A stretch of 64,000 nucleotides of DNA, from the IMG/VR virus record IMGVR_UViG_3300042881_004206; one strand, written 5' to 3'. The position numbers and the translations under genes are program-made. Position 1 is the first letter of the stretch, and each line of letters begins with the position of its first letter. Shown here one piece after another: positions 7,874 through 24,019 of the stretch. This DNA is from a virus. Lineage: Duplodnaviria > Caudoviricetes. The notes under the pieces were generated by a model. It did not search any database and had not been told where the DNA came from. It was given only the letters and a program-made list of their open reading frames with translations.

Positions 7874-7903
7874 TTTTTGAGTCACCGCAGAGTGACACTT
7901 CAA

Positions 7904-7931
7904 AGGGGGCACTTCGGTGCCCTCTTTTTTT
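7904..7931 (+). terminator. Intrinsic terminator after gp23 (UUCG loop)
   Basis: AGGGGGCAC-TTCG-GTGCCCTCT followed by T run. Confidence 0.88.
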
Positions 7932-7961
7932 ATCTCCTAAATACCTACAAAGGAGATTCAT

Positions 7962-8471
7962 ATGACTGCTCTGAATAGAAATCCGCAGAACACCAATCCA
8001 TTACAACCAACAAAATTTCTTCTGACTTTCAGTAGAATATCCGATGTACAATATTTTTGTCAATCCGTAAACATACCAGGTGTTGGTCTAGGTGAAGTCG
8101 ATTATGTTACACCATTTTTGGATATATTTTTACCAGGCACCAAACTGAATTACGAACCATTGGAGATTGAATTTATAATAGATGAAGAACTGGCTTCATG
8201 GAAAAACCTATACAACTGGTTCACTTCCATTGCAGATCCAGATGGTTTCGAGAAGCGAGGTGTAAGTCAAGAGATTCAATATAGAAAACATTATTCTGAT
8301 GCAACCTTAACAGTATTGAGTGCATTAAATAATCCACTATTGCGTGTAGAATTCGCAAATATCTTTCCACTGACAATGAGTGATATCACTTTTGATACCA
8401 GATTATCTTCAGACACAATCATTACCGGAAGAGCAACATTTAGATACCAGTCATACAAATATTTGACATAA
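7962..8471 (+). CDS. gp3: Tail tube terminator / tail completion protein
   Basis: YFCQSVNIPG, YEPLEIEFIIDEEL..W and FANIFP; position after gp23. Confidence 0.85.
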   Translation: MTALNRNPQNTNPLQPTKFLLTFSRISDVQYFCQSVNIPGVGLGEVDYVTPFLDIFLPGTKLNYEPLEIEFIIDEELASWKNLYNWFTSIADPDGFEKRGVSQEIQYRKHYSDATLTVLSALNNPLLRVEFANIFPLTMSDITFDTRLSSDTIITGRATFRYQSYKYLT

Positions 8472-19236: not shown

Positions 19237-19908
19237 ATGAAATTGTCAGCCGACACACTAACTGTTCTCAAAAATTTTGCCAGTATCAATCCTGGTTTGG
19301 AATTTAAACAAGGTAATCAACTTTCTACAATGTCACCCACCAAGACTGTGCTCGCAAAAGCTACAGTTGGTGATAGCTTTCCAGAAGACTTCTGTATCTA
19401 TGACTTGAACCAATTCTTATCGGTTCATTCTTTGTTCAAAGATGCTGATGTGGATTTTGAAGATGCCAATGTTATTTTCAAGAGTGGCAGAAGCAAGACG
19501 AAGTATCGCAAGACTTCAAAAACAATGATTGTTACAGTACCCGAAAAAGAACTGAACTTGCCCAGCGTGGAAATTTCTTTCACATTTAATGATGAAGATT
19601 TTGCCTCTGTTATGAAGTCTGCAAGCGTACTACAATCACCTAATGTCTCCATCGAATCCGATGGTGAAAAGATTTATGTGACTTGTTTCAATGCAGCAGA
19701 TGATTCTTCGCACACAAATCTGATTGAAGTTGCTGATGGAAACGGAAGTAAGTTCAAATCCGTATTCAGTACTGATAATCTGAAGATGATTCCTGGCACA
19801 TATGATGTTCAGATTTCATCAAAAGGTATTTCTTTGTTTAAGAATACAAATGGTAATCTAAGTTATTGGATTGCAATTGAATCTAAGTACTCAAAGTTTG
19901 AGGCTTGA
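19237..19908 (+). CDS. gp45: Sliding clamp
   Basis: MKLSADTLTVLKNFASINPGL, FCIYDLNQFL and YWIAIE; sigma70-like ACGACA-17-TATAAT at 19178-19206. Confidence 0.94.
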   Translation: MKLSADTLTVLKNFASINPGLEFKQGNQLSTMSPTKTVLAKATVGDSFPEDFCIYDLNQFLSVHSLFKDADVDFEDANVIFKSGRSKTKYRKTSKTMIVTVPEKELNLPSVEISFTFNDEDFASVMKSASVLQSPNVSIESDGEKIYVTCFNAADDSSHTNLIEVADGNGSKFKSVFSTDNLKMIPGTYDVQISSKGISLFKNTNGNLSYWIAIESKYSKFEA

Positions 19909-20544: not shown

Positions 20545-21483
20545 ATGAACGAACAACATGTGTTGTGGGTCGAGAAGTATCGCCCACAGAAAGTGGAAGA
20601 TTGTATTCTGCCTGATAATATCAAGGCAACTTTTCAAGAATATGTAAACAGAAAAGAAATTCCGAATCTTCTCCTTTCGGGAACAGCTGGTGTCGGCAAG
20701 ACAACCATTGCAAAAGCTCTGTGTAATGAGATTGGTTGTGATTATATTGTAATTAATGGTTCCGATGAGTCAGGAATCGATGTTCTTCGGAACAAGATTA
20801 AGAACTATGCATCTTCTGTTAGTTTATCTGGTGGTCGTAAGGTCATTATTATCGATGAGGCAGATTATCTAAATCCAAATTCAACTCAACCTGCACTTCG
20901 TGGTGCAATTGAGGAGTTCGCCTCCAACTGTTCGTTTATCTTCACCTGTAATTTTAAGAATAGAATTATTGATCCTATTCACTCTAGGTGTACAGTTATT
21001 GATTTTAAAGTAAACGGCAATAAAGCTAAACTAGCTACACAATTCTTTAAGCGTGTCGAATGGATTCTTGAAGAAGAAAATGTTCAGTATGAAAAAGAAG
21101 TTGTTGCTGCCGTCATCACGAAACATTTTCCCGACAATCGGCGAATTCTAAACGAACTGCAACGATACTCTGTTTCCGGTCGTATCGATAAAGGTATTCT
21201 AAGCTCAGTTAGTGATGTTCTAATTAATGAACTGATCAAATCACTAAAAGAAAAAGATTTTTCTTCTGCTCGTAAGTGGGCGACCAATAATCTAGATAAT
21301 GATCCTTCTCGGATTTTTCGCAAACTCTATGATAGCTTAAACGAATCTCTTAAACCCAATTCTATACCACAGTTGGTTTTGATTTTAGCTAAGTATCAAT
21401 ATCAAGCTGCGTTTGTCGCTGACCATGAAATTAATATGGTTGCTTGTCTCACAGAAATAATGGTAGATTGTGAGTTCAAATAA
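20545..21483 (+). CDS. gp44: Clamp loader large subunit
   Basis: LWVEKYRP, GTAGVGKTT, IIDEADYL and CSFIFTCN; ATGACA-17-TATAAT at 20490-20518. Confidence 0.97.
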   Translation: MNEQHVLWVEKYRPQKVEDCILPDNIKATFQEYVNRKEIPNLLLSGTAGVGKTTIAKALCNEIGCDYIVINGSDESGIDVLRNKIKNYASSVSLSGGRKVIIIDEADYLNPNSTQPALRGAIEEFASNCSFIFTCNFKNRIIDPIHSRCTVIDFKVNGNKAKLATQFFKRVEWILEEENVQYEKEVVAAVITKHFPDNRRILNELQRYSVSGRIDKGILSSVSDVLINELIKSLKEKDFSSARKWATNNLDNDPSRIFRKLYDSLNESLKPNSIPQLVLILAKYQYQAAFVADHEINMVACLTEIMVDCEFK

Positions 21484-21869
21484 TGCCAGATATTTTTAAA
21501 GAAATAATCCCATCTATTCTGGAAACCAAAAAATCTGTTATAAATGACGATATTGATGCAAAGTCTTATGCGCCTTATATAGTCAACCGGGCCTTGTCCT
21601 ATCACTTGGATTGCGTTGCTTTCGTAAATGAAATGAACATGTATCCAGAAATCGATAAAGACATGCAATATCAGTATTATCTAAATAGTATTAGATCAAT
21701 GAAACGGAAATTTAAACCGTGGCAGAAATCTAATAAAGTTGAGAATATTGAGTGTGTGAAAGCCTTTTTTGGTTATTCGGACAACAGAGCCAAGGAAGCC
21801 CTCCTTATTCTCACCGAAGAACAAATCGCTGAGATAAAAATAATAACAGATAAGGGCGGAATGAAATGA
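21483..21869 (+). CDS. gp62: Clamp loader small subunit
   Basis: YAPYIVNRALSYHLD and QYQYYLNSIRSMKRKFKPW; follows gp44. Confidence 0.9.
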   Translation: MPDIFKEIIPSILETKKSVINDDIDAKSYAPYIVNRALSYHLDCVAFVNEMNMYPEIDKDMQYQYYLNSIRSMKRKFKPWQKSNKVENIECVKAFFGYSDNRAKEALLILTEEQIAEIKIITDKGGMK

Positions 21870-22273
21870 TTAATGTAGAAGATTTAGTTGAAGTGACACT
21901 AAATGAACAGGATGATTTTCTAAAAGTACGAGAAACCTTAACACGGATTGGTGTTGCTTCCAAGAAAGAAAAAATTTTATACCAATCTTGCCACATCCTC
22001 CACAAAAGAGGGCAATATTACGTGGTGCATTTTAAGGAATTGTTTGCATTAGACGGAAAACCAACAGATATTACTGAAAGTGATCTTTCTCGCAGAAATG
22101 CAATTGTAAATTTATTGGAAGATTGGGGACTGGTAAAAATTGTCAAAAAAGAAAAGACACAAACACCAGAACCAATTTTTCTCTCACAGATTAAAATCAT
22201 TTCACATAAAGAGAAAAAAGATTGGCAATTAGTACCAAAATATAGTATTGGTAAAAAAGCACAAAAAGATTGA
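21866..22273 (+). CDS. regA: Translational repressor RegA
   Basis: DDFLKVRETLTRIGVAS, LYQSCHILHKRGQYYVVHFKELF. Confidence 0.96.
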   Translation: MINVEDLVEVTLNEQDDFLKVRETLTRIGVASKKEKILYQSCHILHKRGQYYVVHFKELFALDGKPTDITESDLSRRNAIVNLLEDWGLVKIVKKEKTQTPEPIFLSQIKIISHKEKKDWQLVPKYSIGKKAQKD

Positions 22274-22299
22274 CAAATTAATATAAATACTTATATAAT
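22270..22299 (+). promoter_or_regulatory. Nested sigma70 and late promoters for hsp20
   Basis: TTGACA (22270)-18 nt-TATAAT (22294), with TATAAATA at 22282-22289 in the spacer. Confidence 0.7.
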
Positions 22300-22303
22300 C
22301 CTA

Positions 22304-22410
22304 GTCCCATCGGGATGGGAGCAGCAGTCCGAGGTCAGGCTGCATATAAATTCCTCGGGCCAACGCCTTTTGGGTTGGCATTATTAACTCGCTTATTTAA
22401 GGAGATTTAA
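22304..22410 (+). promoter_or_regulatory. Structured 5' leader with ROSE-like thermometer hairpin
   Basis: Three hairpins, a possible pseudoknot, and CTCGCTT/AAGGAG pairing over the SD with a bulged G. Confidence 0.6.
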
Positions 22411-22854
22411 ATGACCTCTATTCATAATCTTTTCGATTTTCACAAGTTTGATCCTTTTGCTGTCGGATTCAATGATGTTTTCAAGGACCTACAAGAAATG
22501 TCCAAGAATCTAAAGGCAGTTAGTTATCCTCCATACAATATCAAACAAGTCAAAGAAAACAAGTATGTTATCGAAATGGCTGTTGCTGGTTTTAGCAAGT
22601 CTGATATTGAAATTACTTTGGAAGGTAATAAACTTATCGTTAAGGGTAATACTCAAGAAAATGAAACCGACGACAATTTCATTTTCAAAGGTATTGCAAA
22701 TCGTAATTTTTCCCGTGAATTCAAAATCAATGACAAGATTGAAATTGAAAATGCAGAATTGGCTAACGGTATGTTGAAGATTTGGTTGCAGAATATGATT
22801 AAGGCACAAGACCTAGTGAAAAAGATTCCTTTGGTTTCCAAAGAAGAAAAATAA
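22411..22854 (+). CDS. hsp20: Small heat-shock protein Hsp20 (IbpA-like)
   Basis: SYPPYNI, IEMAVAGF, KGIANRNFSREF and AELANGMLKI. Confidence 0.95.
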   Translation: MTSIHNLFDFHKFDPFAVGFNDVFKDLQEMSKNLKAVSYPPYNIKQVKENKYVIEMAVAGFSKSDIEITLEGNKLIVKGNTQENETDDNFIFKGIANRNFSREFKINDKIEIENAELANGMLKIWLQNMIKAQDLVKKIPLVSKEEK

Positions 22855-22881: not shown

Positions 22882-22920
22882 AAAGGGGCTCTTGACAGAG
22901 CCCTTTATTTTTTGTATAAT
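22882..22920 (+). terminator. Intrinsic terminator overlapping a sigma70 promoter
   Basis: GGGCTC-TTGACA-GAGCCC followed by T run; loop is the -35, with TATAAT 17 nt downstream. Confidence 0.75.
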
Positions 22921-23429: not shown

Positions 23430-23879
23430 ATGTCACTCACGATTAAAAACCTAGAAAGTGCATTGGCTGGAGAGTCAATGGCACATATCAAATATCGTTA
23501 TTTTGCAAAGATTGCTCGTGAAGAAGGATTCGAAGATGTTGCAAAACATTTTGAACATACAGCAGATCAAGAAATTAAACACGCTTGGGGTCATCTGGAG
23601 TTGTTGATTGGTAAACCTTCTACGAAAGAATGTCTTGAAAAAGCAATTGAAGGTGAAACATACGAATTTACGGAGATGTATCCTAAGTTTCATGCTGAAG
23701 CGGTTGCTGAGGGTGATCTAAAAAGTGCCGAAGAAGCAAAAGAACAATTATTCGAATCGCGCCGTCACGCCAAAGAATTCATTGAAATTTTAGAATTGGC
23801 GGAAAAGCGTTTTGCAGCACTCAAGAAAGTGGAAGAAAGACACGCCAATGCTTACAAAAATGTACTAGGAGGTCTATAA
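23430..23879 (+). CDS. rbr: Rubrerythrin (ferritin-like diiron domain)
   Basis: NLESALAGESMAHIKYRYFA, TADQEIKHA, AIEGETYEFTEMYP and VEERHA. Confidence 0.92.
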   Translation: MSLTIKNLESALAGESMAHIKYRYFAKIAREEGFEDVAKHFEHTADQEIKHAWGHLELLIGKPSTKECLEKAIEGETYEFTEMYPKFHAEAVAEGDLKSAEEAKEQLFESRRHAKEFIEILELAEKRFAALKKVEERHANAYKNVLGGL

Positions 23880-24019
23880 TGTCTGAACAAAAAGAAAGAA
23901 TCTATGTTTGTATTGTTTGTGGCCACACATTGTCTGAATCTGATTGGTTGAGTTTGCCTGACGAAGTTAATTGTCCAGAATGCGGCGTTTCAAAACAGGA
24001 TTATGTTTTGATGGAGTGA
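23879..24019 (+). CDS. Rubredoxin (46 aa; absent from supplied ORF track)
   Basis: Translated by hand: MSEQKERIYVCIVCGHTLSESDWLSLPDEVNCPECGVSKQDYVLME, with two CxxC motifs; TAATG coupling to rbr. Confidence 0.9.
   Translation: MSEQKERIYVCIVCGHTLSESDWLSLPDEVNCPECGVSKQDYVLME

Follow-up and report, generated by a model that had tools for sequence, protein, structure and literature searches.

Leaders of ibpA genes and the phage hsp20 leader

To our knowledge, RNA thermometers have been described almost exclusively in bacteria, and full-text searches of the literature turned up no paper in which a ROSE-type element is described for a phage chaperone gene. In the ibpA thermometers of Pseudomonas (ROSE_3, RF02523), hairpin II alone senses temperature, and a stable hairpin I is considered to assist folding or to stabilize the transcript (Krajewski et al., 2013; PMC3669281). 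Enterobacterial IbpA represses its own synthesis via its own leader, which belongs to ROSE_2 (RF01832) (PMC10474464; PMC10410725). A further precedent is the gene 32 leader of phages T4, T2 and RB69, which carries an H-type pseudoknot at its 5′-end, with tens of nucleotides between it and the ribosome-binding site downstream (Holland et al., 1999; PMC3014915). The present analysis concerns the leader of hsp20, a gene for an IbpA-like small heat-shock protein (sHsp), in a 64,000-nt stretch of DNA (the window) from a virus of the Caudoviricetes, IMG/VR record IMGVR_UViG_3300042881_004206. It is probable (roughly 0.6) that this leader is a ROSE-like translational gate, the 5′ domain of which is a structural accessory and not a ligand sensor.

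The leader (22305-22410) lies between a promoter that matches the sigma-70 consensus at 12 of 12 positions and hsp20, and is thus an sHsp gene's 5′ untranslated region (UTR), as are ROSE elements. A preliminary description had proposed four structures in it (a 5′ hairpin, a pseudoknot, a second hairpin and a hairpin that masks the Shine-Dalgarno (SD) sequence), and a check of the sequence found each of them at the position proposed. The elements are as follows.

22305-22320, + strand: 5′-terminal hairpin, UCCCAU (22305-22310) with AUGGGA (22315-22320), 6 bp, loop CGGG
22321-22343, + strand: pseudoknot stem 1, GCAGC (22321-22325) with GCUGC (22339-22343); its 13-nt loop holds the 5′ strand of stem 2
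22327-22360, + strand: pseudoknot stem 2, GUCCGAGG (22327-22334) with CCUCGGGC (22353-22360), 8 bp
22344-22352, + strand: A-rich linker AUAUAAAUU, bridged by stem 2
22359-22379, + strand: hairpin I, GCCAAC (22359-22364) with GUUGGC (22374-22379), inner CC/GG, loop UUUU
22388-22404, + strand: hairpin II, the presumed thermosensor, CUCGCUU (22388-22394) with the SD sequence AAGGAG (22399-22404), loop AUUU
22411-22854, + strand: hsp20, IbpA-like sHsp of 147 aa (Pfam HSP20, E 3e-17)

The phage leader resembles the Pseudomonas ibpA thermometers in its stable, G+C-rich hairpin I built on the core (A/C)UGCC...GGGU, its single-stranded A/U spacer, its short U(U/C)GCU/SD hairpin II with a bulged G and its location ahead of an IbpA-type sHsp gene, and the window aligns to the whole ROSE_3 model. 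Unlike the Pseudomonas elements, it is encoded by a phage, is preceded by phage early and late promoters, and carries an extra 5′ hairpin and a pseudoknot in front. Its hairpin II is also weaker, with energies that are predicted to rise from −7.2 kcal/mol at 5°C through −5.2 at 20°C to −2.8 at 37°C, as against −4.1 to −7.6 kcal/mol for the Pseudomonas sensor hairpins (PMC3669281); by these predictions, the phage hairpin falls within the Pseudomonas range only at lake temperatures. With the enterobacterial ibpA leader it shares the CUCGCU...AGGAG core, and the encoded protein shares the equivalents of R93, R97 and Y34. On the other hand, the structures further upstream are not the same in number and kind, and the equivalent of K98 is not cationic.

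The ROSE-like core

In hairpin II, UCGCU (22389-22393) pairs with AGGAG (22400-22404) and leaves G22391 bulged, so that both the anti-SD sequence and the bulged G of ROSE elements are present; G22391 is invariant in alignment A1. Hairpin I, predicted at −12.6 kcal/mol, corresponds to the stable 5′ hairpin of ROSE elements and has a second bulged G at 22365. When 22200-22500 was compared by cmscan with all 4227 Rfam families, the only meaningful matches were ROSE_3 and ROSE_2, the alignments of which extend from hairpin I over the ACUCGCU...AGGAG hairpin to the AUG; no further ROSE model was matched at E≤10. The comparison with Rfam ROSE models that the preliminary description had suggested thus gave two matches, although both are below the gathering thresholds of their families, and scans at gathering threshold of the whole window and of 14 related loci reported tRNAs only. 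Related leaders are likewise sub-threshold for ROSE_3, which was the only match at E≤10 in L012 (27.6 bits) and L010 (19.8 bits), two leaders with the long module described below. Because it scores below the Rfam thresholds, the element is called a ROSE-like variant here, and no membership of a ROSE family is claimed for it.

The pattern TCGCT-N3-12-AGGAG-N3-10-ATG occurs once in the 64 kb, compared with an expectation of 0.08. For comparison, 80 IMG/VR loci were collected, the Hsp20 proteins of which are 58-83% identical, and they provided 55 distinct leaders. The YYGCU/AGGAG geometry is kept in 54 of these, and in the cultured phages HTVC008M, Mosig and Melnitz, a TATAAATA late promoter is likewise followed by these two hairpins. 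In a 47-sequence alignment, 95.5% of the cells of hairpin I are paired and six of its eight pairs have changed on both sides; for hairpin II, 93% are paired and the changes are exclusively one-sided, from C to U. Pairing falls to 45-55% for these hairpins when the 3′ partners are slid along the alignment as a control. A covariance model built from the alignment found the hsp20 leader (63.9 bits) as the sole true match in the 156.6-kb source genome. Thus, the comparative data uphold the structural part of the thermometer first proposed, namely an SD-masking hairpin that has both U(C)GCU and the bulged G and lies ahead of a phage hsp20, while temperature gating itself would follow by analogy with the ibpA leaders of Pseudomonas and E. 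coli.

The same model gave a second match at 7895-7967 of the window (21.9 bits), which proved to be the terminator of the major capsid gene together with the next SD sequence and was rejected as a ROSE element. A role of hairpin I as a terminator or attenuator was also discarded: the window has AUUAUUAA after hairpin I, and a terminator scan made no call there. Many of the relatives have a U-rich run 3′ of hairpin I.

A conserved H-type pseudoknot

Stems 1 and 2 have no nucleotides in common and the lengths of the loops permit their coexistence. In the 12-sequence alignment A3, all eight pairs of stem 2, the core of which is formed by CCGAGG (22329-22334) and the complementary CCUCGG (22353-22358), are paired in 100% of the cells, and five of the eight have changed on both sides. 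For stem 1, 94% of the cells are paired, the unpaired cells being those of one misaligned column, and two pairs have changed on both sides. Slide controls on the same alignment gave 30-46% paired. The related leaders contain about 20 distinct sets of arms built on one plan, with a first loop (L1) of 0-3 nt, a second (L2) of 1-5 nt and an A-rich third (L3) of 4-9 nt, and the scores of most arm sets were matched by 0-3 of 300 shuffles. The group with ACCGU/ACGGU was kept out of the alignment count since its MAFFT register failed, and is covered by the arm search only. Representative versions are listed below by locus.

Window: stem 1 GCAGC/GCUGC; stem 2 GUCCGAGG/CCUCGGGC
L133: stem 1 ACCAGC/GCUGGU; stem 2 as in the window
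L103: stem 1 GCAAGGU/ACCUUGU; stem 2 GGUGGU/ACCAUC
L090: stem 1 as in L103; stem 2 CGGUGG/CCACUG
L099: stem 1 ACUACC/GGUAGU; stem 2 UGCCGCUG/CAGCGGUG
L091: stem 1 GCUAGC/GCUAGU; stem 2 GUACCUGUG/CACAGGUGC
L101: stem 1 ACCGU/ACGGU; stem 2 UGGCUGU/ACAGCCA
L127: stem 1 GUAGU/ACUAU; stem 2 UAGUCGGU/GCCGACUA

Since the two stems do not overlap and the loops allow them to coexist, the comparison of these sequences supports well the reading that the H-type pseudoknot is real and evolutionarily conserved. The pseudoknot that had been proposed as an addition to the canonical ROSE layout is therefore borne out, as both helices are kept, with covariation, in the roughly 20 versions. Rfam contains no family to which it is matched at E≤10. 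Its stem and loop sequences vary freely among the versions, which have no conserved unpaired nucleotides. It ends at 22360, 28 nt ahead of the anti-SD sequence, overlaps hairpin I by 2 nt only and leaves the SD and anti-SD sequences untouched, so that the expression platform of a riboswitch is lacking.

Modular organization and transcription of the leaders

The related leaders are assembled from modules that follow one another in the order 5′ hairpin, pseudoknot, a longer uncatalogued module and ROSE core. The ROSE core stands alone in 30 of the 55 distinct leaders, the long module is present in 23 and the 5′ hairpin in 20, and the arrangement of the window (5′ hairpin, no long module) is found in only 2. 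The pseudoknot is an optional module that is absent from most relatives. All of the leaders are located ahead of hsp20 itself, or of a gene for a 74-aa protein followed by hsp20. Two overlapping promoters precede the leader in the window:

22270-22299, + strand: sigma-70-type promoter, TTGACA (22270-22275), 18-nt spacer and TATAAT (22294-22299)
22282-22289, + strand: T4-type late-promoter-like TATAAATA, nested in the spacer of the former and read from the sequence

This nesting of TATAAATA in the early promoter recurs in most of the related hsp20 loci and suggests early as well as late transcription of hsp20, with the two starts separated by about 8-10 nt. Contigs of lake metatranscriptomes from two studies span 22265-22818 and 22312-22580 and take in leader and hsp20 sequence; they provide weak evidence that is compatible with a leader-containing hsp20 transcript, given that their ends are not fixed and that they may derive from DNA.

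The 5′ hairpin, predicted at −7.1 kcal/mol at 37°C, begins about 5 nt past the −10 box, and every architecture of the leader opens with a stable hairpin at about this distance. Its 17-mer GUCCCAUCGGGAUGGGA (22304-22320) is present in a single copy in the 156.6-kb genome. It heads 77 distinct IMG/VR stretches, 74 of which continue into a ROSE core, in a search by exact match that by its nature passes over natural variants. One variant of the 5′ hairpin was seen, GUUCCCAGGGAUGGGAA in L078. In 596 Gb of prokaryote genomes, the 17-mer has 54 matches, none of them before a ROSE core, compared with about 69 expected by chance; at this chance level, the search provides neither a host copy nor a clue to the host. 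In the leaders that have the pseudoknot and no long module, stem 1 begins 0-2 nt past the 5′ hairpin, and in 13 of 15 of them stem 2 abuts hairpin I or overlaps it by 2-3 nt. With such end-to-end spacing, the four helices can stack as one rod.

The long module (about 75-130 nt) was observed in relatives of the window, where it separates the ROSE core from the 5′ hairpin or pseudoknot, at L010:2369-2484, L034:2341-2486, L048:2349-2484 and in about 60 further leaders. Its motifs are ACCUU(A/G)GG as the loop of a first hairpin, GGCGUCCG or AAAGCGG, a middle hairpin that varies, and a last hairpin, CUGG-N5-7-GUAA-CCAG, with covariation; the module itself is without an Rfam match at E≤10. RNAalifold recovered only this last hairpin of the module and hairpin I from the long-module leaders, and a loop-loop pairing of ACCUUA with UAAGGU is perfect in some variants only. 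The gene for the 74-aa protein (MLSAINTSIDT...), which lies between leader and hsp20 at L121:7630-7851, L083:7723-7944 and in L003, has no Pfam match, and the end of its coding region contains a second UUUGCU...AAGGAG arrangement directly ahead of hsp20.

Proposed action of the leader and competing explanations

In the reading that we favor, hairpin II would block binding of the 30S subunit in the cold and open with rising temperature, and its low predicted stability (−5 to −7 kcal/mol at 5-20°C) would suit the temperatures of a lake. The 5′ hairpin, the pseudoknot and hairpin I, which are separated by gaps of 0-2 nt or share nucleotides, most probably form one compact stacked 5′ domain. This domain would shield the 5′-end from decay, and the weak sensor hairpin could then fold in the same way whichever of the two alternative starts the transcript has. 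We infer such a stabilizing or insulating role for the pseudoknot by extending the role proposed for hairpin I of Pseudomonas. A stable hairpin a few nucleotides from the predicted start also recalls the 5′-terminal stem-loops that stabilize mRNAs in E. coli (reference 45 of PMC3669281); a difference is that the 17-nt hairpin sequence of the phages is unusually invariant, and stabilization is a proposal for the phage leader.

Several observations weigh against the favored reading. The leader folded as a single sequence is no better than its shuffles (z = −0.93) and its minimum-energy fold pairs otherwise; because single-sequence folding gives no support, the case rests on the comparative data. 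Here, hairpin II is backed by conservation and one-sided changes only, which reflects the fact that the SD side is fixed and cannot covary. Of 102 related cores, only 69 adopt the ROSE hairpin as their predicted minimum-energy structure at 37°C. In the window, hairpin II is mutually exclusive with an alternative hairpin that covers the AUG and half of the SD sequence and the predicted stability of which exceeds that of hairpin II by about 0.8-1 kcal/mol:

22393-22401 with 22406-22414, + strand: alternative 9-bp A/U hairpin, −3.6 kcal/mol at 37°C

This alternative is specific to the window and is not kept in the relatives, the SD-AUG spacers of which differ. The Rfam scores are well short of the gathering thresholds (24.6 bits, E 0.0037, against 43 for ROSE_3; 22.7 bits against 65 for ROSE_2). 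The RNA contig of run X15 begins upstream of both predicted transcript starts, which may be due to read-through or DNA. Finally, the 5′ hairpin is invariant in leaders of which the other modules are wholly different, an invariance that a purely structural role leaves unexplained and that hints at a sequence-specific partner. A long-range switch between AGCAGU and the anti-SD sequence, which appears in the minimum-energy fold, was dropped since the hexamer is confined to the subgroup of the window, the members of which have identical stem 2.

In the main competing explanation, the leader would serve as an operator of Hsp20 itself, to which free Hsp20 oligomers would bind and repress translation until aggregates titrate them away, the 5′ pseudoknot (and the long module in relatives) being the nucleation platform, like the T4 gene 32 leader for gp32. 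To bind the ROSE-type 5′ UTR of its own mRNA, IbpA of E. coli depends on R93, on an aromatic side chain at position 34 and on R97/K98 (PMC10474464). The alignment of the window Hsp20 with Salmonella IbpA shows the equivalents of R93, R97 and Y34 to be kept (ANRNF, SYPPYN), and among 86 distinct phage Hsp20s, the equivalent of position 93 is R in all 86, that of position 34 is Y, W or F in all 86, and that of position 97 is R or H throughout. The weakness of hairpin II on its own and the restriction of the leader modules to hsp20 also speak for an operator, and the gene 32 operator provides the precedent of a 5′ pseudoknot (PMC3014915), to which that of the phage hsp20 leader is similar in its very short first loop across a second stem of 7-8 bp. 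However, R93 is a general feature of the IbpAs of alpha- and gamma-proteobacteria and hence unspecific, and position 98 is never cationic in the phage proteins (E, T, S, A or Q), so that the cationic pair at 97 and 98 is lacking, whereas the K98A substitution abolished repression by IbpA in E. coli (PMC10474464). Moreover, most relatives have no pseudoknot, and the free variation of its sequences speaks against sequence-specific recognition. The gene 32 leader also differs in that it belongs to another gene, lacks sequence similarity to the phage hsp20 leader with its 3-5 nt junction loop and A-rich third loop, has a known protein ligand where none is known for the latter, and is followed 3′ of the pseudoknot by an unstructured A/U tract instead of two conserved hairpins. 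Taken as a whole, self-repression by Hsp20 is rather unlikely. A combination of both ideas, in which heat would open the ROSE hairpin and Hsp20 or another trans factor would bind the pseudoknot or long-module domain and thereby report the load of unfolded protein, is a tempting speculation to which we give a low probability; such a two-input switch, if true, would be a phage counterpart of IbpA self-repression joined to the pseudoknot operator of gene 32.

The remaining explanations dispense with the thermometer or add a ligand to it. As hairpin II and the alternative hairpin of the window each cover the initiation region, the SD-masking hairpin could simply be a constitutive throttle on translation that fixes a low output of a gene transcribed early and late, or could shield GGAG from a RegB-like or host endonuclease, in the manner in which RNA structure protects GGAG sites from T4 RegB (PMC3014915). 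A Pfam search of the genome, which is 92% complete, revealed no RegB homolog, although the controls of that search likewise gave nothing. A generic mask needs neither the exact U(C)GCU and bulged-G geometry of proven thermometers, which is kept across the phages, nor a tie to a heat-shock gene, and a fixed mask is accordingly a poor candidate. The pseudoknot shares its H-type topology, its A-rich third loop and its location in a 5′ UTR with the preQ1-I and SAM-II riboswitches, and might on these grounds be a new small-molecule aptamer acting together with the thermometer. Unlike these riboswitches, it has no conserved ligand-pocket nucleotides (no loop nucleotide is invariant), no Rfam match and no overlap with the ribosome-binding site, and the AGCAGU cross-talk with the anti-SD sequence is limited to one subgroup. 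Thus, with no conserved sequence, no Rfam match, an untouched SD sequence and a module that most relatives dispense with, an aptamer is very improbable, and the ligand sensing suggested by the preliminary description finds no footing. That description had also pointed to RegA as the product of the adjacent gene; in such a reading, RegA would repress hsp20 via the pseudoknot or the ribosome-binding site. The regA gene ends at 22273, just before the leader, and the SD-AUG region is A/U-rich. This adjacency is nevertheless uninformative, because every T4-type genome has regA directly after gene 62, and the sites at which RegA acts vary and lack RNA structure (PMC3014915). HTVC008M, Mosig and Melnitz keep the ROSE-like leader although their hsp20 does not adjoin regA, which leaves the RegA link with hardly any probability.

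Aquatic T4-like phages of a large family, cultured Pelagibacter and Methylophilales phages among them, have the ROSE-like hsp20 leader in conserved form. Such conservation implies that abundant viruses may tune their own chaperone post-transcriptionally, free of the heat-shock sigma factor of the host. Neither the covarying pseudoknot nor the other interchangeable modules are catalogued as RNA motifs, and all are linked to one gene, and the modular leaders offer a compact natural system in which the role of 5′ accessory structures of ROSE elements can be addressed.

Genomic context of hsp20

The source genome is a 156,624-bp IMG/VR record from lake water. At about 61-63% identity of gp44, the Methylophilales phage Melnitz, pelagimyophages and cyanomyophages are its nearest cultured relatives. 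The gene order of the window is that of a T4-type replication cluster, and hsp20 is a monocistronic unit closed by a terminator/promoter cassette (22883-22920), the layout of which is that of the promoter-early stem-loop (PeSL) cassettes of T4-type phages.

19237-19908: gp45
20545-21483: gp44
21483-21869: gp62
21866-22273: regA, ending directly ahead of the hsp20 leader
22883-22906 plus T-run, + strand: intrinsic terminator 3′ of hsp20, overlapping the −35 box of the next promoter
22892-22920, + strand: next perfect sigma-70-type promoter, its −35 box TTGACA in the terminator loop
25129-28572: tRNA array

Two genes downstream of hsp20 lies a rubrerythrin gene (23430-24019; Pfam Rubrerythrin, E 4e-14), which is followed by an open reading frame (ORF) for a Cys-rich protein of 46 aa and then by a dCMP-deaminase-like ORF; these three form a small stress and nucleotide block behind the replication cluster.

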